From a virus (Duplodnaviria > Heunggongvirae > Uroviricota > Caudoviricetes), in the IMG/VR virus record IMGVR_UViG_2617270980_000004, positions 1-27,269 of that record: a DNA stretch of 27,269 nucleotides, one strand, 5' to 3'. Positions 6,353-21,071 of this stretch are shown piece after piece (within the stretch, counting starts at the first letter, position 1; each line of letters begins with the position of its first letter). A program made the position numbers and the translations under genes. The notes beneath the pieces are model-generated. The model searched no databases. It saw nothing but the letters and a program-made list of their open reading frames with translations, and was not told the DNA's origin.

Positions 6353-7039
6353 ATGACCCCAATAAAAATATTTATGACTATTGCTGATTTCAAACGGCCT
6401 AAATTGGAACTCCCAAACGGGGCAAACAAACTACTACTGCACTCTTGCTGTGCTCCATGTTCCGGTGAAGTGATGGAGGCGCTTCAGGCCTCGGGAATCG
6501 ACTACACCATCTTTTTCTACAACCCGAACATTCATCCTCAGAAAGAGTATTTAATTCGTAAGGATGAAAATATTCGCTTTGCTGAACAACACGGCGTGCC
6601 GTTTATCGATGCTGATTACGACACCGACAACTGGTTTGAACGTGCCAAAGGAATGGAATGGGAGCCTGAGAGGGGGATCCGTTGTACCATGTGTTTTGAC
6701 ATGCGTTTTGAGCGGACAGCGTTGTACGCTGCTGAAAATGGTTTCAGTGTGATCAGCAGTTCACTGGGCATTTCACGCTGGAAAAATATGCAGCAGGTTA
6801 ACGAGTGTGGGCGGCGAGCTGTTGCGCATTATCCGGGTATGGTGTACTGGGATTATAACTGGCGCAAGCAGGGCGGCTCGTCCCGTATGATTGAAATCAG
6901 CAAGCGCGAAAAATTCTATCAGCAGGAATATTGTGGCTGTGTGTATTCTCTGCGCGATACCAATCTACACCGCAAATCTCAGGGACGCCCTCTTATCAAA
7001 ATTGGCCAACTCCACTACGGAAAAGAAGAGAAGGAGTGA
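6353..7039 (+). CDS. QueH-like (DUF208) Fe-S protein, epoxyqueuosine reductase family (assignment from recalled motifs)
   Basis: Conserved cysteine clusters [20 protein letters not shown] and QEYCGCVYS. No clear Shine-Dalgarno; alternative start at 6374. Extended -10-like TGcTACACT upstream. Confidence 0.55.
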
Positions 7040-7217
7040 TTTTATGGATCACCTTTCTGATTGATTTCATATTGGCGAGGTGACGTGAGTTAAGTAGAAT
7101 TGCTGCGGGTGCCTGAGGCTGTCTGCCTCAGGCATGAACACCAAAAGGCAGATAGAGAAAGCCCCAGTTAACATTACGCGTCCTGTAAGACGCTCAACAT
7201 TAATCTGAGGCATATGG

Positions 7218-13609: not shown

Positions 13610-13685
13610 GGCCCTTTAGCTCAGTGGTGAGAGCGAGCGACTCATAATCGCCAGGTCGCTGGTTCAAATCCAGCAAGGGCCACCA
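13610..13685 (+). tRNA. tRNA with CAU anticodon (resembles E. coli minor Ile tRNA ileX/ileZ by recall; Met not excluded)
   Basis: Cloverleaf folds by hand: acceptor GGCCCTT/AAGGGCC, D arm GCTC...GAGC, anticodon loop CTCATAA, T arm GCTGG TTCAAAT CCAGC, 3' CCA encoded. Confidence 0.85.
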
Positions 13686-13785
13686 TCACAAACCGCCATT
13701 AGCTTATCAGGAAGAGCAGACGACACGATAACAGGGTTGTTGGTGCGGGGGCGGGTCCCCGATGGCGGTCCATTATCGGTATTCA

Positions 13786-13862
13786 GCGTTGTTAGCTCAG
13801 CCGGACAGAGCAATTGCCTTCTAAGCAATCGGTCACTGGTTCGAATCCAGTACAGCGCGCCA
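13786..13862 (+). tRNA. tRNA-Arg (anticodon UCU)
   Basis: Cloverleaf folds by hand: acceptor GCGTTGT/ACAGCGC, anticodon stem ATTGC/GCAAT with loop CTTCTAA, T arm ACTGG TTCGAAT CCAGT, 3' CCA encoded. Confidence 0.85.
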
Positions 13863-14773: not shown

Positions 14774-15109
14774 TTATGGACTTTGTTGTTTTAGCCCATA
14801 AGGACATATTTGCAGAGTGCAACGGTTATTAAAGCATTCATTCAATACGTTATCTGTATTTGTAGGGCATTCCTGGCTGTTTTTGATTAAATTCCAGAAT
14901 GTTTTATTGAATGGTACTACGTTGTAAATGGTTACAGGCAGCACTTTGTTATTGAGCATGATGCCTGTGTGAGTCAGTGTAAATATACTTTCAGGAGGTA
15001 AGAAAGCATCCGATTGATACCAGATTATTAATTTTATTTTACTCCATATGACTGAAAAAGATATTCCGCATGATGGCTGGATAACTGTATCAATCACAAT
15101 CCACTTCAT
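14774..15109 (-). CDS. hypothetical orphan protein, 111 aa, Trp/Cys-rich, AT-rich codon usage
   Basis: AAGGAAA Shine-Dalgarno 5-6 nt upstream of ATG at 15109; AT-rich promoter-like region upstream; opposite in orientation to late transcription. Confidence 0.55.
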
Positions 15110-15369
15110 TTAGTTTCCTTGTTTATGCCTTGCTGGTGATGTTCTGAAAAGTATAAATGATATTTTTGATTGTAAACCATAGAGCAGAATTATTTTTCTG
15201 ATGTTGTTTATTGTTTATTTAAATGCAGGGTGGTTTATATCTCGTCTTGTAGTTTATCCATGCATATCTGCTTGATGATGAGGTTTTTAATTAAGGTATG
15301 GTTTTGTGTTTTTTCTGTATTACATGTCAGGTATTTTAAAGAATCATTTTTCAGATGGTGGAAAGAACC

Positions 15370-17226
15370 ATGGCATTTAAACACTATGATGTTGTCAGGG
15401 CGGCGTCGCCGTCAGATCTTGCGGAAAAGCTGACACATAAACTGAAAGAGGGCTGGCAGCCGTTTGGTAGTCCGGTGGCCATAACCCCTTATACCCTGAT
15501 GCAGGCGATTGCAGCAGAAGGTGATGTGGTCGTCAGTGGTGCAACTGAGCCGGAGTGGTACTACGTCATCGTACTGGCCGGGCAATCCAATGCCATGGCT
15601 TACGGTGAAGGGCTTCCGCTTCCGGATTCTTACGATGCGCCCCACCCACGCATTAAGCAACTGGCCCGTCGCAACACAGTGACTCCCGGTGGTAAAGCAT
15701 GCGCATTTAACGACATCATTCCGGCAGACCACTGCCTGCATGATGTTCAGGATATGAGCGCACTGAATCATCCGAAGGCAGACCTGAGCAAAGGGCAGTA
15801 CGGCTGTGTCGGCCAGGGCTTACATATTGCCAAAAAACTGCTTCCGTATATCCCGAATAACGCGGGGATCCTGCTGGTACCATGCTGTCGTGGTGGTTCG
15901 GCATTCACCCAGGGCGCGGAGGGGACATTCAGTGCGGACACGGGGGCCAGCCAGGATTCGGCACGCTGGGGTGTGGGTAAACCGTTATATCAGGACCTGA
16001 TCGCACGCACCAAAGCGGCATTACAGAAGAACCCGAAAAATGTGTTGCTGGCGGTGTGCTGGATGCAGGGCGAATTTGACATGAGCGCTGCCACCTACGC
16101 ACAGCAACCGGACCTGTTCACGGCCATGCTGAAGCAGTTCCGTACTGACCTTTCCGGATTTAACGCGCAGTGCCATGGCGGCAGTGCTGCAGTTGTACCG
16201 TGGATTTGTGGCGACACGACGTATTACTGGAAAAACACATACGGCACACAGTATGACTCCGTCTACGGCGCGTACAAAAACAGGGAGAGCGACAACGTTT
16301 TCTTTGTGCCGTTCATGACCGACGGTAACGGCAACAACACGCCCACCAACTTACCGGCAGAAGACCCGGATATTGCTGATGCAGGTTATTACGGCGCGCA
16401 ATCCCGTAGTAATGGTAATTGGGTATCGTCAAATCGTCCGACACATTTCAGTTCATGGGCGCGCAGGGGCATTATTTCGGATCGCCTGGCAACCGCTATT
16501 CTGAACGCAGTTGGTCGAACCAGCGCCTTCATCAGCGGTACCGCACCGGAGATTAAACCCTCGCCCGGCGGCGACACGCCATCGGGGCCGTCTGATGGTG
16601 ACACATCCGTTCGTACAGTCTCCCTGCTGCCGACAGCCGGAGAGGCTGCTGCGCAGGGCTGGACCATCACCGGCGGCAGTGTTGCGCTGGAAGATGGTGT
16701 GTTTAAGGTTACCAAGCAGAGCAATAAAACCTGGTCCCTGATGCATCCGGTGGATGACGCGGTCTCCCTGCTGACACGGGGTGGCAGACTGAGCTGTAAG
16801 TTTCGACTGTCAGGCGCACTGACCAACAACCAGTTCGGTCTGGGAATTTATCTGTATACCGATGTAGCGTTACCTGACGTCGTGGCGATGACCGGGACTG
16901 GTAACCCGTTCCTGATGTCGTTCTTCACCCAGACCACAGACGGCAAACTGAATCTGATGCATCACAAGAAAGCCGGAAACACAAAGTTGGGCGAGTTCGG
17001 GAATTACAGTAACGACTGGCAGACGCTGGAGCTGGTGTTCACCGCCGGCAGTGCCACGGTTACTCCGAAACTGAATGGAGTGGCTGGCCCGGCATTCCAG
17101 GTCATAAAAGACAGTCTGACACTGGGGCTGAATGCGCTGACGCTGACGGATATTACCAAAAATGCAGCGTATGGCGTTGAGATAGAAAGTCTGGTGCTGG
17201 AGATAAATGCACCGGCATCATCATAA
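15370..17226 (+). CDS. NanS-p-like sialate O-acetylesterase (N-terminal DUF1737-like segment, SASA/SGNH esterase domain, C-terminal extension)
   Basis: GQSN esterase motif in VLAGQSNAMAYGEG; size and position (between the tRNA/cargo locus and the holin) match the nanS-p gene of Stx phages as I recall it. Confidence 0.8.
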   Translation: MAFKHYDVVRAASPSDLAEKLTHKLKEGWQPFGSPVAITPYTLMQAIAAEGDVVVSGATEPEWYYVIVLAGQSNAMAYGEGLPLPDSYDAPHPRIKQLARRNTVTPGGKACAFNDIIPADHCLHDVQDMSALNHPKADLSKGQYGCVGQGLHIAKKLLPYIPNNAGILLVPCCRGGSAFTQGAEGTFSADTGASQDSARWGVGKPLYQDLIARTKAALQKNPKNVLLAVCWMQGEFDMSAATYAQQPDLFTAMLKQFRTDLSGFNAQCHGGSAAVVPWICGDTTYYWKNTYGTQYDSVYGAYKNRESDNVFFVPFMTDGNGNNTPTNLPAEDPDIADAGYYGAQSRSNGNWVSSNRPTHFSSWARRGIISDRLATAILNAVGRTSAFISGTAPEIKPSPGGDTPSGPSDGDTSVRTVSLLPTAGEAAAQGWTITGGSVALEDGVFKVTKQSNKTWSLMHPVDDAVSLLTRGGRLSCKFRLSGALTNNQFGLGIYLYTDVALPDVVAMTGTGNPFLMSFFTQTTDGKLNLMHHKKAGNTKLGEFGNYSNDWQTLELVFTAGSATVTPKLNGVAGPAFQVIKDSLTLGLNALTLTDITKNAAYGVEIESLVLEINAPASS

Positions 17227-17311
17227 AAAGTGAGCCAGTCAAATGGAAGGTATCGTTAAACTCACCGGTAGTGTCAGTGGGTCGTCTGAGATGCCTGCAT
17301 GAGTTATCAGA

Positions 17312-17341
17312 GCCATCAGTACTTAACTGGTGGCTTTTTTT
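17312..17341 (+). terminator. terminator-like hairpin between the esterase gene and the holin
   Basis: Stem GCCATCAG/CTGGTGGC (one G-U pair) followed by TTTTTTT. Confidence 0.5.
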
Positions 17342-17376
17342 ATTGTTGTCAGCTTCCGGATAACGGGAGACGGGGT

Positions 17377-17592
17377 ATGTACCAGATGGAAAAAATCACA
17401 ACAGGTGTGTCATACACCACGTCAGCGGTGGGAACGGGCTACTGGTTCCTGCAGTTGCTGGACAGGGTTTCCCCGTCTCAGTGGGCGGCAATAGGCGTGC
17501 TGGGGAGTCTGCTGTTTGGGCTGCTGACATATCTGACTAACCTGTATTTCAAAATCAGAGAGGACCGTCGTAAGGCTGCACGGGGAGAGTAA
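17377..17592 (+). CDS. S: pinholin, phage 21 S-type, 71 aa, with dual-start motif MYQM
   Basis: C-terminal [40 protein letters not shown] matches S21-type pinholins by recall; GGGAGACGGGG Shine-Dalgarno; paired with a SAR endolysin downstream. Confidence 0.85.
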
Positions 17593-17596
17593 TTCA

Positions 17597-17941
17597 ATGA
17601 CTCAAAACTATGAACTGATTGTGAAAGGGATCCGCAATTTTGAGAATAAAGTTACGATAACTTTAGCGTTACGGGACAAAAAACGCTTTGACGGTGAAAT
17701 TTTTGACCTGGACATCTCGCTGGACCGTGTTGAAGGTGCCGCGCTGGAGTTTTATGAGGCAGCAGCCAGAAGGAGCATCAGACAGGTCTTCCTGGATGTT
17801 GCTGCCGGGTTATGTGAAGGGGATGAGCAGTCGCCGGAAAAGCGCCCCGTAATTTTAGAGGCGCAGGATGTGTTGATAACCTACAGAGGAAAACTACCGG
17901 GAATAATTACGGGTTCTCTGAAGAGTCCGCCGAAATGGTAA
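17597..17941 (+). CDS. YdfR-like (DUF826) protein located between holin and endolysin
   Basis: N-terminus MTQNYELIVKGIRNFENKVTITLAL resembles Qin-prophage YdfR as I recall it; starts 4 nt after the holin stop. Confidence 0.7.
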   Translation: MTQNYELIVKGIRNFENKVTITLALRDKKRFDGEIFDLDISLDRVEGAALEFYEAAARRSIRQVFLDVAAGLCEGDEQSPEKRPVILEAQDVLITYRGKLPGIITGSLKSPPKW

Positions 17942-18179
17942 TTTTACCAGCATATTTTTCATCCAGTAATACAGCAAGCCGCCTGAAAGAGTCTTGTTGT
18001 TCCTGAGACCATTTGGGATTGCATGATTCAAACTGGATTGATGCCAGCGTTGATTGCATCTGTTCCCTTGGAATTGAGAATGCCAGATATGAGAAGGCGA
18101 CGGTAAGGGTATTCACGTCTTCCCGAAGCCTGGAAATGCTGTCGAGCAACTCCTGTAGAGAAATGGTGTTATTGTCCAT
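17907..18179 (-). CDS. hypothetical 90-aa protein encoded antisense to the lysis operon
   Basis: GAGGA Shine-Dalgarno 6 nt upstream of ATG at 18179; its 3' end overlaps the 3' end of the YdfR-like gene by 35 nt. Confidence 0.45.
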   Translation of the reverse strand: MDNNTISLQELLDSISRLREDVNTLTVAFSYLAFSIPREQMQSTLASIQFESCNPKWSQEQQDSFRRLAVLLDEKYAGKITISADSSENP

Positions 18180-18284
18180 AAATAATCCTCATGATTGTAT
18201 TGACCTGTTAGCAGCCTGAGGCAACAGGCTGGAACTGATAAACATATCCAGGGCTCAGAAACCGATAAATCCTGATAAATATCC

Positions 18285-18818
18285 ATGAACGCAAAAATCA
18301 GATACGGCCTGTCGGCTGCCGTTCTGGCGCTGATTGCCGCTGGTGCGCCTGCGCCTGACATTCTCGACCAGTTTCTGGATGAAAAGGAAGGTAACCACAC
18401 CACGGCATACCGTGATGGCGCGGGTATCTGGACCATCTGCCGCGGTGCCATCCTGGTGGATGGCAAACCTGTCGTTCCGGGCATGAAGTTGTCGAAGGAA
18501 AAATGCGACCGGGTTAACGCCATTGAGCGTGATAAGGCGCTGGCATGGGTGGAGAAAAACATCAAAGTGCCATTGAGCGAACCCCAGAAAGCGGGGATCG
18601 CGTCATTCTGTCCGTACAACATTGGTCCCGGTAAGTGTTTCCCGTCGACGTTTTATAAACGAATTAATGCAGGTGATCGCAGGGGAGCGTGTGAGGCGAT
18701 TCGCTGGTGGATTAAGGACGGTGGCAGAGACTGCCGTATTCGTTCAAACAACTGCTACGGTCAGGTATCCCGTCGTGACCAGGAGAGCGCGCTGGCGTGC
18801 TGGGGTATCGACAGATAA
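18285..18818 (+). CDS. R: SAR endolysin (lysozyme R with N-terminal signal-anchor-release domain)
   Basis: N-terminal SAR-like hydrophobic segment YGLSAAVLALIAAGAPAP followed by a lysozyme core (EGNHTTAYRDGAGIWTICRG); close to phage 21/Stx-phage R by recall. Confidence 0.9.
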   Translation: MNAKIRYGLSAAVLALIAAGAPAPDILDQFLDEKEGNHTTAYRDGAGIWTICRGAILVDGKPVVPGMKLSKEKCDRVNAIERDKALAWVEKNIKVPLSEPQKAGIASFCPYNIGPGKCFPSTFYKRINAGDRRGACEAIRWWIKDGGRDCRIRSNNCYGQVSRRDQESALACWGIDR

Positions 18819-18911
18819 GCAGAATATTTTGCTGAAAAATGCGGTTTGCTTACACGGACGGATAACACGAAATCCTGCGAACTGACAAAAACTAAGTGAA
18901 TAAAAGTAAAA

Positions 18912-18947
18912 ACCCCGTTTGTTGGCAGCAAGCGGGGTTTTGTTTTT
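18912..18947 (+). terminator. rho-independent terminator immediately after the endolysin
   Basis: 10-bp stem ACCCCGTTTG/CAAGCGGGGT (one G-U pair), loop TTGGCAG, then TTTGTTTTT. Confidence 0.6.
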
Positions 18948-19012
18948 ATGGCAGTAAGCTATGGGAGGCTGCCTTGATTGATTTTAGCAAACTGATTAGG
19001 GAGTTGCGACTC

Positions 19013-19108
19013 ATGATTAGTCAATTACCAAACTGGAAATTTTTGCTGGTCTGGAGCATCCCTTTTTTATGGGTAGTATCCCAGTTAATTGTGGCAATTA
19101 AGGGGTAG
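19013..19108 (+). CDS. candidate small hydrophobic peptide A, 31 aa
   Basis: MISQLPNWKFLLVWSIPFLWVVSQLIVAIKG; GGGAG about 9 nt upstream; found by hand translation. Confidence 0.3.
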   Translation: MISQLPNWKFLLVWSIPFLWVVSQLIVAIKG

Positions 19109-19110
19109 CT

Positions 19111-19242
19111 ATGTCAGACAAACTCATAACGCCGGCAAAGGTCCTGTGTGTGATTGTCGGTATTTCATTTTCACTAATGCTGGTTGCTCTTTTTCTGTCC
19201 CTCGCCTGGGTGATGTTGTCTTCGTCGGGGCTGCTGGGGTGA
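19111..19242 (+). CDS. candidate small membrane peptide B, 43 aa
   Basis: AAGGGG Shine-Dalgarno 5 nt upstream; single predicted transmembrane helix (VLCVIVGISFSLMLVALFLSLAWVML). Confidence 0.35.
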   Translation: MSDKLITPAKVLCVIVGISFSLMLVALFLSLAWVMLSSSGLLG

Positions 19243-19361
19243 CAGTGACTGATGACATCAGCAGAGCGCTGGCTTTTGCTATTAAGTGGGTGGCTGTTGG
19301 TATTGCTGTGTCTCCGATGCTGTATGGGCTGGCAAAACTGGTCATTGCGCTGAAATCGTGA
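19239..19361 (+). CDS. candidate small membrane peptide C, 41 aa, GTG start overlapping the stop of B (GTGA)
   Basis: Hydrophobic RALAFAIKWVAVGIAV... resembles peptide D; start and stop are coupled with B. Confidence 0.3.
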   Translation: MTVTDDISRALAFAIKWVAVGIAVSPMLYGLAKLVIALKS

Positions 19362-19372
19362 ACTTTAAAAAG

Positions 19373-19459
19373 ATGAGTGCTGAACTTATTCGGGCAATGG
19401 CATTTGCCATTCGTATTGTGGCCATTGCTGTTCTGGTCTGGGCAATCCGTTGGTGGTGA
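19373..19459 (+). CDS. candidate small membrane peptide D, 28 aa, paralogous to C
   Basis: [28 protein letters not shown]; ends 1 nt before the Rz start codon. Confidence 0.3.
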
Positions 19460-19460
19460 T

Positions 19461-19955
19461 ATGAACCGTGTTCTGTGTGTGGTGATTATTGTCATGCTGG
19501 TAGCCTGTGGTGTGCTTAGTCTGGGGCTGAATCATTACCGCGATAACGCCATCACCTACAAAGCGCAGCGCGATAAAAAAGTCAGTGAGCTGAAACTGGC
19601 GAATGCCACTATTACTGACATGCAGCAGCGCCAGCGAGATGTCGCTGCGCTTGATGCCAGATACACGAAGGAATTAGCCGATGCGAGAGCTGAAAATGAA
19701 ACTCTGCGCGCTGATGTTGCCGCTGGTCGTAAGCGCCTGCGGGTCAACGCCACCTGCCCCGGTACCGTGCGTGAAGCCACCGGCACCTCCAGCGTGGATA
19801 ATGCAACCGGCCCCCGACTGGCAGACACCGCTGAACGGGATTATTTCATCCTCAGAGAACGGTTGATGACAATGCAGAAGCAGCTGGAAGGGGCGCAGGA
19901 ATATATCCGCACTCAGTGCACTAAGCTGGCTTTTTATTATCCGGAGGATACATGA
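19461..19955 (+). CDS. Rz: Rz i-spanin
   Basis: N-terminal transmembrane helix followed by coiled coil; [16 protein letters not shown]... and [23 protein letters not shown] resemble Stx-phage/lambda Rz by recall; embedded Rz1 in the +1 frame. Confidence 0.85.
19681..19866 (+). CDS. Rz1: Rz1 o-spanin lipoprotein, embedded within Rz
   Basis: Lipobox LVVSAC and proline-rich [27 protein letters not shown], very close to lambda Rz1 as recalled. Confidence 0.8.
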
Positions 19956-20176
19956 AGAAATTACGGGTAACCGTAGAACCTTTTCAGGGAACAATTCCGT
20001 TCCGTATTTTGCAGCGTGGTCGTGTTCTTGTTGAAGGTTCGTTCAGTGGTAAATGTACGCAATTACACTCCCGGACCTTTCAGGTGAATGCCACGAATGA
20101 AGAGCTAACCGTGGAGTGTACGATGAATGCCGCTAAATGCCGCATGGTATCCGCTGCATTACAACCAGTGTGTTGA
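19952..20176 (+). CDS. hypothetical 74-aa protein translationally coupled to Rz (ATGA overlap)
   Basis: Start overlaps the Rz stop; no recognisable motif; occupies the position where bor-type morons sit in other lambdoids. Confidence 0.4.
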
Positions 20177-20374
20177 GCGACCTTATTATCCATGCGCGGT
20201 ATTGTCGCCGTATTCCTGCATTAACAGAGACCGCAGCCCGACAGGGAGACTCCTCTGCGCGAGTGTGCGGGGATAATCAAAAACGATACACACCGGGGTT
20301 TACCGCGTTAACGGAGCGCGGCGTTGTCCCCTCATAGTCGCCTGTCCGGTGCGATGGTGGAAGAAACCGAACGT

Positions 20375-20575
20375 TCATTTCTCGTTATTTGTCATGCTGG
20401 CCGGGCGCAGATGCGTTGCATCTGTTGCCAGCCTTCTCCTGCAGGCTTCAATAACCCACGCTGAAAAGTTACCGGACCCTTTATGCTCAAGGGCGATGTT
20501 GATCTGTTCAATTATGTGATTGGGGAAACGGATATTGCGGGTTGTGGTTCTGCGGGTCCGGTTTTTCGATGACAT
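20375..20575 (-). CDS. ribbon-helix-helix-like small DNA-binding protein, 66 aa
   Basis: AAAGGAA Shine-Dalgarno upstream of internal ATG at 20575; basic N-terminus then a predicted strand-helix-helix (RNIRFPNHIIEQINIALEHKGSGNFSAWVIEACRRRL). Confidence 0.5.
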   Translation of the reverse strand: MSSKNRTRRTTTRNIRFPNHIIEQINIALEHKGSGNFSAWVIEACRRRLATDATHLRPASMTNNEK

Positions 20576-20616
20576 ATTTATTTCCTTTACTGATTGCCAT
20601 ATGACGGGGATTTTAC

Positions 20617-20982
20617 ATGGCTGAGCTTCGTACACTCCAGAGCAGAATCAAAACACTGAATACCCGACGGGTGAATATTCTGAAGGGGGAGCAGCGTCGT
20701 GTCAGTGGCAGTGCACGTGTTTCCCTCAAGCGTCATATCTGGCTGAGGGACGCCGGGCAGTGCTGTATCTGTGGTCGTGTGGTTGACCTCTGTGACAGTG
20801 AACTCGATCACCGAATTGCACTTCAGTTCGGTGGTGGTAATGAGGAGACGAATCTTTGGACGCTCTGTGCCGAATGCCATCGACAAAAGTCTGCTCGTGA
20901 AGCGGCGAGTGGTATGCCGGACCCGACGCTGCCGGAGGTGTCCGGAGGTAGTGGCAGAGAGGACGACATCATCGGACTGTAA
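20617..20982 (+). CDS. HNH endonuclease (packaging-associated, upstream of the small terminase)
   Basis: HNH motif CCICGRVVDLCDSELDHRIALQFGG...NLWTLCAECHRQK; the HNH-TerS-TerL arrangement is typical of HK97-like cos phages. Confidence 0.8.
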   Translation: MAELRTLQSRIKTLNTRRVNILKGEQRRVSGSARVSLKRHIWLRDAGQCCICGRVVDLCDSELDHRIALQFGGGNEETNLWTLCAECHRQKSAREAASGMPDPTLPEVSGGSGREDDIIGL

Positions 20983-21071
20983 CCCAACCCGGGGGGGTAT
21001 CATCCGGCGTAAAAAACGATCGCTTTGGACACCGCGCCCCCTCTCACGCAGAGAAAAAATTCCCGTTTCAG

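Follow-up and report, generated by a model that had tools for sequence, protein, structure and literature searches.

Four predicted small membrane-protein genes between the endolysin and spanin genes of a lambdoid prophage, with a possible part in lysis timing

Background

Lysis by lambdoid phages is among the best-understood of biological timing devices, and it is usually taught as the work of holin, endolysin and spanin. The lysis region of a 27,269-nucleotide (nt) stretch of viral DNA (IMG/VR record IMGVR_UViG_2617270980_000004, positions 1 to 27,269; hereafter the window), which is identical to a lambdoid, Shiga toxin (Stx)-phage-like prophage of Escherichia coli NCTC86, raises the question of whether this list is complete. 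Between the gene for its signal-anchor-release (SAR) endolysin, R, and its spanin gene, Rz, lie four consecutive small open reading frames (ORFs), here called A to D. We find that they are a real, conserved and essentially unstudied feature. From their sequences and setting we tentatively infer, with less than even confidence, that they encode late, translationally chained, single-pass inner-membrane proteins that modulate the timing of lysis.

Results

Four small genes and their predicted products

The original prediction, made from the letters of the DNA, described four consecutive ORFs between a terminator behind R and the start of Rz, each with one hydrophobic helix, B with an AAGGGG ribosome binding site, C on a GTGA stop/start overlap with B, and D ending 1 nt before the Rz ATG; all of these elements, together with the end of R, were located where it had placed them. 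Its lengths of 31, 43, 41 and 28 amino acids (aa) were correct for B, whereas C has 40 residues rather than 41, A probably has 44 and D has 28 to 33. The four genes are listed below.

18974 to 19108, plus strand: gene A, probably 44 aa from TTG 18974; single predicted transmembrane (TM) helix; absent from the RefSeq annotation
19111 to 19242, plus strand: gene B, 43 aa from an ATG with AAGGGG 6 nt upstream; RefSeq WP_001280935.1; PHROG 4906 (E = 4.5e-21)
19239 to 19361, plus strand: gene C, 40 aa from the GTG of the GTGA overlap with the B stop; PHROGs 1115, 3246 and 4493 (E = 6.4e-25)
19358 to 19459, plus strand: gene D, 33 aa from GTG 19358 or 28 aa from ATG 19373; RefSeq WP_032140280.1; PHROG 4493 (E = 4.4e-7)

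Gene A could alternatively start at ATG 19013, giving 31 aa (19013-19108). The TTG at 18974 has GGGAGG 5 nt upstream; the start of a divergent homologue, A* (MFDFSKLIREIRVM...), is at this codon too, where unrelated upstream sequence provides a GTG and a Shine-Dalgarno sequence (SD) of its own; and PHROG 6632 (45 positions) matches A residues 1-43 (E = 1.4e-13). Because A* shares the start codon and the PHROG spans residues 1-43, the 44-aa form is probably the right one. RefSeq lists B, C and D as hypothetical proteins and starts C at CTG 19206, overlapping B by 37 nt, a start that is probably wrong. The GTG of D forms another GTGA overlap, this one with the stop of C; D has no SD, so that its translation would depend on coupling, and it ends in IRWW immediately ahead of Rz.

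Each of the four products has a 19-residue window with a mean Kyte-Doolittle hydropathy of 1.9-2.9 (2.19 in A). Segments outside the predicted helix are at most 17 residues long, the C-terminal tails measure 2-14 residues with at most one charge, and none of the four has a lipobox. B is predicted by the positive-inside rule to be single-pass with its N-terminus inside, and AlphaFold2 models C as one continuous helix over residues 2-39 (predicted local distance difference test score 94).

Evidence that the four frames are coding

Five hydrophobic plus-strand ORFs of at least 28 codons (the four genes and alternative-frame ORFs) cover 486 of 516 nt, whereas 2000 mononucleotide shuffles gave a mean of 0.27 such ORFs and a maximum of 3 (p < 0.0005). 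The ratio of nonsynonymous to synonymous polymorphism (pN/pS) is 0.46 in the frame of B against 0.89 and 1.14 off frame, with 0 internal stops in 35 unique DNAs, and 0.21 in the frame of C against 1.24 and 2.72. Between the two types of A it is 0.29 against 0.83 and 1.18, an N-terminal indel being in frame, and between the two types of D it is 0.38; off-frame values overall run from 0.6 to 2.7, and the stops are retained in both A types and both D types. In a large protein collection B forms 103 clusters, all of 43-44 aa and reaching down to 62% identity, with the conserved motif MSDKLI...CVIVGISFSLMLV in which K4, G17 and F20 are invariant and the CVIVGISFSLMLV core nearly so; every match there that carries a source name is from E. 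coli. Full-length B is present in 276 phage records by tblastn, mostly of Stx phages. SDs and start codons are kept at the same codon across differing upstream contexts, and the TM motifs of the families are residue-specific beyond mere hydrophobicity. Conservation of the frames in homologous inserts, which the original prediction had named as its test, is therefore borne out by the lengths of B, by pN/pS and by the phage records.

An antisense ORF of 123 aa (19124-19495, minus strand), which crosses B, C, D and the start of Rz, was considered as a gene and rejected since its extent is not conserved elsewhere. It shares wobble positions with C only and is a typical complement of hydrophobic coding sequence. 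Antisense ORFs vary in extent or disappear in other architectures, whereas the sense ORFs retain their starts, SDs and stops. On this evidence coding is certain for B and C and very probable for A and D.

Three families rather than one repeated gene

The products fall into three families, A, B and C/D. The paralogy of C and D proposed in the original prediction holds at the protein level, where their Smith-Waterman score is 47 against 22.6 +/- 4.5 in shuffles (p <= 0.0005); a C/D repeat at the DNA level was not significant. The tandem array of one repeated gene that it described is instead a composite of three unrelated families, which occur singly or in other orders elsewhere. Members of the C/D family usually begin MKNGLE..AP, followed by ..RAxAFAI[KR].., and are either C-type, ending ...VSPMLYGLAKLIIALKS (48 or 60 aa), or D-type, ending ...WAIRWW (38-50 aa), with intermediates between them; divergent D-type proteins retain AFAIR...WAIRWW. 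The C and D of the window both lack the canonical MKNGLE N-terminus, C being an N-terminally shortened member of the MKNGLE...AFAIKWVAVGIAVSPMLYGLAKL family.

PHROG membership of A to D is significant over most of each hidden Markov model, and the PHROGs concerned (6632; 4906; 1115/3246/4493) are functionally unannotated. Searches of Pfam, NCBIfam, PADLOC and PDB sequences with A to D and the family profiles gave no match, the PADLOC defence and exclusion models matching none of the four at E <= 1, and no Rfam family was found over 16500-21000 at E <= 1. A C/D profile search of 1.84 billion representative proteins returned 19 small-protein clusters. In word-indexed searches the named members among C homologues belong to Escherichia or Salmonella, save one protein labelled Pseudomonas aeruginosa (P0109) that is probably E. 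coli contamination. The same probably applies to the sole match in a scan of one genome per species, a 328-bp contig labelled Xanthomonas pisi (NZ_JPLE01000251.1, L086) that carries B and the start of Rz. A derivation of B or C from the TM domain (TMD) of Rz, the second TMD of the pinholin or the SAR domain of R was tried and found unconvincing (best p 0.01, 0.0035 and 0.0045, respectively, of 28 comparisons).

Setting in the lysis cassette

The lysis region of the window runs in the order pinholin, DUF1327/YdfR gene, a 90-aa gene on the opposite strand, R, the interval that holds A to D, and Rz. Its other features are as follows.

17377 to 17592, plus strand: pinholin gene S, class II (phage 21-type); Pfam PF04971 (E = 9e-33) and RefSeq annotation
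18285 to 18818, plus strand: R, SAR endolysin of RrrQ type, 177 aa; Pfam PF00959 (E = 5.5e-24), annotated as rrrQ lysozyme
18819 to 18908, plus strand: spacer behind R, about 85 nt, common to all insert-bearing architectures
18909 to 18947, plus strand: intrinsic terminator from a terminator scan, with a 15-bp stem (hairpin 18909-18941) and a T-run to 18947
19461 to 19955, plus strand: i-spanin gene Rz, ATG start; Pfam PF03245 (E = 4.4e-51); its leader TGGTGGTGAT forms the last codons of D
19681 to 19866, plus strand: o-spanin gene Rz1, embedded in Rz, from the ORF list; lipobox, proline-rich

The R-Rz interval thus comprises 642 nt of spacer, hairpin with T-run, and four plus-strand ORFs. The N-terminus of R, by direct reading of the sequence, is a hydrophobic segment rich in Gly and Ala. 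The SAR endolysin setting given in the original prediction is right for the window, though it is not exclusive, as genes like B and C are also found behind a soluble GH108 endolysin (see below). The terminator hairpin folds at -23.8 kcal/mol (z = -4.9 against shuffles) and has a T-rich tail on the reverse strand too, so that it may act in both directions. Rz1 has no RefSeq annotation in the window, while the analogous Rz1 of 933W is annotated.

Downstream, a 74-aa ORF at 19952-20176 overlaps the Rz stop (ATGA) and matches PHROG 2571, a family of unknown function; Rz of the window has 164 aa against 153-155 aa in many relatives, and it is this extension that produces the overlap. The prophage backbone is Stx-phage-like without stx. 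Other cargo includes hokD (a type I toxin gene), iraM and a gene for a nanS-p-like SASA esterase, and also tRNA-Ile and tRNA-Arg genes, whose place is downstream of the genes for the Q antiterminator and a DNA methyltransferase; the positions noted for this set of features are 7026-7181, 13671-13830 and 14777-15112.

A variable slot between R and Rz

About 490 related loci were taken from IMG/VR with B, R and two holin types as anchors in turn. Where nothing separates R from Rz, the two genes share a GTGA overlap, CAGTGAGC; the K-12 Qin and DLP12 cassettes are also of this direct kind. We defined insertion against direct R-Rz cassettes of the same families, for which K-12 Qin is unsuitable, its RzpQ belonging to a different spanin family. 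By this comparison A to D do represent an insertion relative to directly joined R and Rz, as originally proposed. Inserts always open with the same spacer and a hairpin and close with a small TM gene abutting Rz, and their contents are as follows.

A* alone (301 nt)
D' alone (338 nt)
C'-B (490 nt)
A-B
C'-D
A-B-C-D (645 nt), the type of the window
Ant antirepressor followed by B (about 1 kb), the Stx-phage type
A-B behind a gene for a 231-aa protein, either alone or with C-D added
Types in which a DNA methyltransferase stands behind B or D, two methyltransferase kinds occurring in the slot

The minimal insert is accordingly the spacer, the terminator and a single small TM gene. Nearly all cassettes with an R of this type hold one or more of these small genes, coupled in translation to Rz. 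The same stretch of about 85 nt follows R in the ABCD, C'-B, ant-B and 231aa-A-B types, and its diversity among haplotypes equals that of R (nucleotide diversity 0.06); at the terminator position other architectures carry either an identical or an alternative hairpin. The junctions between architectures are short shared sequences. Thus the end of B, GGGGTGA, doubles as SD, start and stop for the next gene, be it Rz, C or D, while TGGTGGTGA(T/A)ATG precedes Rz or a methyltransferase and sets the RWW C-terminus of D and A*. In phage 933W the 153-nt gap between ant and Rz, unannotated in the reference, holds a 44-aa B homologue (L257 5421-5570; record 27420-27569), and most Stx phage records likewise have no annotated feature at this position.

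One metagenome scaffold in ENA (L256, 554 bp; 43-222; P0165) carries pinholin residues 1-36 fused in frame to a C-family helix, exactly at a Trp (SPSQW|VAVGVAVSPMLYGLAKLVIALKS), with B, C and D downstream. The fusion resembles the product of a microhomology-mediated loss of about 1.8 kb, or is possibly an assembly chimera.

Recent spread of the block and wider occurrence of its families

The 513-bp ABCD block is present at 99% identity or above in 580 of 5426 complete E. coli genomes (about 11%), strains of sequence type 131 included, and some part of it is matched in 1862 to 2068 of them (about a third). Across 36 distinct R-ABCD-Rz haplotypes (L006-L085), nucleotide diversity is 0.05-0.11 in R, the spacer and Rz and just 0.0004-0.003 from the terminator to the start of Rz. 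The low-diversity block, about 18935-19470, has 10 segregating sites in about 515 nt and edges about the terminator and the Rz start. A near-invariant block amid diverse flanks indicates recent spread, and the ABCD arrangement reads as a young composite, carried by recombination into diverse cassettes, of families that are individually older.

Relatives of B and C stand behind the endolysin gene in three unrelated kinds of cassette. Besides the pinholin and R cassettes, there is a Salmonella prophage in which holin_2_3, a 161-aa lysozyme and C' (60 aa) precede Rz in that order, and a type of E. coli prophage (L253 3807-4461; also L254 and L255) in which five small genes come after holin_8, holin_3_7 and a soluble GH108 endolysin, among them those for a 65-aa TM protein, a C-like protein of 38 aa, a B-like protein of 44 aa and a 60-aa lipoprotein (PHROG 7528); no PF03245 Rz was recognisable in the 8-kb locus of this cassette. 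The families thus accompany lysis cassettes of unrelated make-up and are not bound to SAR endolysins. A decayed Salmonella prophage (L251 3805-4168) has two tandem C paralogs, of 64 and 55 aa, between a SASA esterase gene and a DUF1353 gene, away from any endolysin.

Association with the start of the pinholin

The pinholin of the window starts MYQM (17377-17388) and so lacks the Lys2 of the canonical MKSM dual-start antiholin; MNQM, MDQM and IHQM are the other non-Lys2 starts (loci L258-L495). In phage 21 the additional positive charge from the Lys of the MKSM start is what makes the longer product, S21-71, an antiholin (PMC9636201). In two symmetric holin-anchored samples restricted to RrrQ-type R, whose loci are not independent and are compared here without phylogenetic correction, non-Lys2 pinholins were accompanied by small TM genes in 61 of 70 loci and by direct R-Rz in 9, whereas MKSM pinholins had small TM genes in 7 of 35 loci and direct R-Rz in 28 (odds ratio 27, p = 1.4e-11). 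Counted as unique holin-plus-R haplotypes the ratios are 49:6 versus 6:21 (p = 2.6e-9), and a further 22 MKSM cassettes with a different lysozyme are all of the direct kind. The association favours a modulation of lysis without proving it, and we treat it as a lead.

Expression of the block

A consensus scan of 17200-20700 found no plus-strand promoter-like site, which is not proof of absence; over these 3.5 kb it returned 2 promoter-like sites against 4.0 expected from shuffles. In the C'-B type the first small gene begins about 25 nt past the hairpin. With a strong terminator upstream and no promoter found, A to D are probably expressed late only, by terminator-resistant, Q-modified transcription, which speaks against a function in the lysogen, for instance in classical exclusion or conversion.

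Discussion

A possible role in the lysis clock

The role that we tentatively propose for A to D would have the following course. A hypervariable accessory slot would have arisen at the old R/Rz GTGA overlap, laid out as R, the 85-nt spacer, the terminator hairpin, variable cargo, at least one small TM gene, and Rz. Only Q-antiterminated late RNA polymerase would transcribe it. Translation would initiate once, at the strong SD of A, and stop/start coupling would then relay ribosomes over the 2-nt gap between A and B, the B-C GTGA, the C-D GTGA or an 11-nt gap, and the 1-nt gap between D and Rz. The peptides would reach the membrane alongside pinholin, SAR endolysin and spanins, and would tune the lysis clock there, either through helix-helix contacts with the pinholin or with the SAR domain or by acting on membrane energisation. 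Where the pinholin has lost its Lys2 dual-start antiholin, they would form an antiholin-like regulator in trans. In its furthest extension, which we regard as doubtful, the A, B and C/D families would be new trans-acting regulators of the lysis clock that replace the dual-start antiholin in most E. coli pinholin/SAR-endolysin cassettes, the B of 933W and of other Stx phages included, and co-determine the release of Shiga toxin and phage.

Alternative explanations

A number of observations weigh against a role in lysis timing. No holins were found among the C/D relatives in the search of 1.84 billion representatives, and no paper on the peptides came up when the literature was searched by topic and by peptide strings. 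Resemblances between the C helix and pinholin TMD2 (p ~0.0035) and between B and the TMD of Rz (p ~0.01) fail correction for the 28 comparisons made, and the wobble-aligned antisense frame yields the same pN/pS as the sense frame. The holin start and the insert lie about 1.3 kb apart and all four combinations of start and insert exist, a proximity at which linkage or shared ancestry could yield the association. The remaining points are shared with the main rival explanation, that A to D, though genuine small membrane proteins, are ordinary accessory cargo with no part in lysis, lodged at a permissive R/Rz recombination hot spot and active, for example, in late-phase superinfection exclusion, in an anti-defence function or as a membrane-acting factor. 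The slot also houses Ant antirepressors, the 231-aa protein and two kinds of DNA methyltransferase; the antirepressors and methyltransferases are ordinary accessory cargo, so that position alone is no proof of a lysis role. Modules are exchanged at short shared junctions, and the near-clonal ABCD block in its diverse flanks is what a recently spreading cassette would leave, indicating recent spread rather than long-term upkeep of the four-gene order. The B and C families accompany several unrelated holins and endolysins, a soluble one among them, which makes a specific pinholin partner unlikely as the whole story, and the decayed Salmonella prophage carries family members away from any lysis gene. 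Exclusion and conversion morons nevertheless require expression in the lysogen, which the upstream terminator and the failure to find a promoter make unlikely; no PADLOC model matched; the minimal insert is a lone small TM gene, always adjoining Rz; and the association with holin start type is strong. On balance we consider the cargo explanation somewhat less likely than a role in lysis timing, of which it is the main rival.

Three further explanations are less likely than either lysis timing or cargo. If insertion of the spacer and terminator uncoupled Rz from R, the small ORFs could be a translational relay that delivers ribosomes to Rz, the peptide itself mattering little. The last ORF of every architecture does overlap or abut the Rz start (by GTGA or TGGTGGTGA(T/A)ATG), D has no SD of its own, and the Rz leader dictates the RWW C-terminus of D and A*. 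Such a relay needs no set sequence, yet three unrelated families are all single-pass and hydrophobic, with pN/pS below 0.5 and residue-specific motifs; relatives of B and C are also found without an Rz behind them, and four consecutive relay ORFs would be superfluous, all of which renders the idea improbable. In size and hydrophobicity the peptides also resemble type I toxins, and membrane-damaging peptides of the Hok or TisB kind under antisense RNA control could be imagined here, as transcription from a weak minus-strand promoter-like site (19117-19088) could give an antisense RNA to A with its end at the two-way hairpin. We judge this very unlikely, given that Pfam and NCBIfam toxin matches and an Rfam antisense RNA are all absent, that promoter-like sites are fewer than in shuffles and the minus-strand one may be chance, that the promoter/terminator arrangement is missing where A overlaps the 231-aa gene, and that the genes are embedded in a coupled operon with no stand-alone locus. 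Least probable of all is that the ORFs are spurious or decaying and without function. Gene A lacks annotation, as does B in most Stx phage records, one A copy is frameshifted, two R-A-B-Rz loci (represented by L316) have a premature stop in A, and C and D of the window lack the usual family N-terminus. Against this stand the conservation of frame, length, start and stop among divergent copies in differing contexts, purifying selection confined to the proposed frame or its wobble-aligned antisense, the unconserved extent of the antisense ORF, and the outcome of the chance test (p < 0.0005).

Comparison with characterised lysis regulators and accessory genes

A to D are outside every characterised family of lysis regulators. 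No Pfam or PHROG holin profile matches them at E <= 1, and in place of the hydrophilic, highly charged C-terminal tail that accompanies the TM helix of a holin they have short tails with at most one charge. Like A to D, the antiholins S107 of lambda and S21-71 of phage 21 are small inner-membrane products of the lysis cassette; made alongside the holin, they delay its triggering through TM helix interactions, and the window cassette uses a pinholin of the phage 21 type. These antiholins, however, are N-terminally extended forms of the holin, whereas A to D have genes of their own, downstream of the endolysin, and are unrelated in sequence to the holin, which in the window begins MYQM without a Lys. 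Nor do A to D resemble spanins, having no envelope-spanning periplasmic domain or lipobox while Rz and Rz1 are separately present, or a known type I toxin-antitoxin system, as neither a toxin family nor an Rfam family (E <= 1) was matched.

The lambdoid morons, such as HK97 gp15 and lambda bor, are small accessory genes between conserved late genes, often encode membrane proteins and are swapped horizontally as cassettes. A classical moron has its own promoter and a downstream terminator and is expressed in the lysogen; in A to D the terminator lies upstream, the consensus scan of 17200-20700 showed no plus-strand promoter-like site, and the genes are translationally chained into the late operon.

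The releasin gp25 of phage Mu (DUF2730) is an accessory lysis protein, membrane-tethered by one N-terminal TM helix, that has a SAR endolysin as its target and a gene close to those for the endolysin and spanins (PMC9239132). It has a sizeable cytoplasmic domain, in contrast to A to D, whose 28-44 aa leave almost no extramembrane domain and which match neither DUF2730 nor any other Pfam family; the window, moreover, already has a pinholin. T4 RI, the P1 proteins LydB, LydC and LydD, and P2 LysA are separately encoded antiholins and extra holin-like proteins, likewise small and membrane-bound, that are encoded within or close to lysis operons and adjust the timing, and in P1 several such proteins can cooperate with a SAR endolysin (PMC9025707). 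They are larger than A to D, with periplasmic or cytoplasmic domains or several TM helices, have roles demonstrated by experiment and share no homology with A to D.

Conclusions

Even if A to D prove unrelated to lysis, they represent three families of membrane proteins of fewer than 50 aa that are under selection and compete for one slot. Many copies of these families have been missed by annotation, which makes them useful for the annotation of small proteins, and a four-gene block that is spreading almost clonally through divergent prophages is likewise useful for studies of phage mosaicism. If the peptides do act on the lysis clock, the standard model of the phage 21/Stx-type cassette misses a component. 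The release of Shiga toxin depends on phage lysis, and a regulator of lysis time would therefore bear on toxin release.

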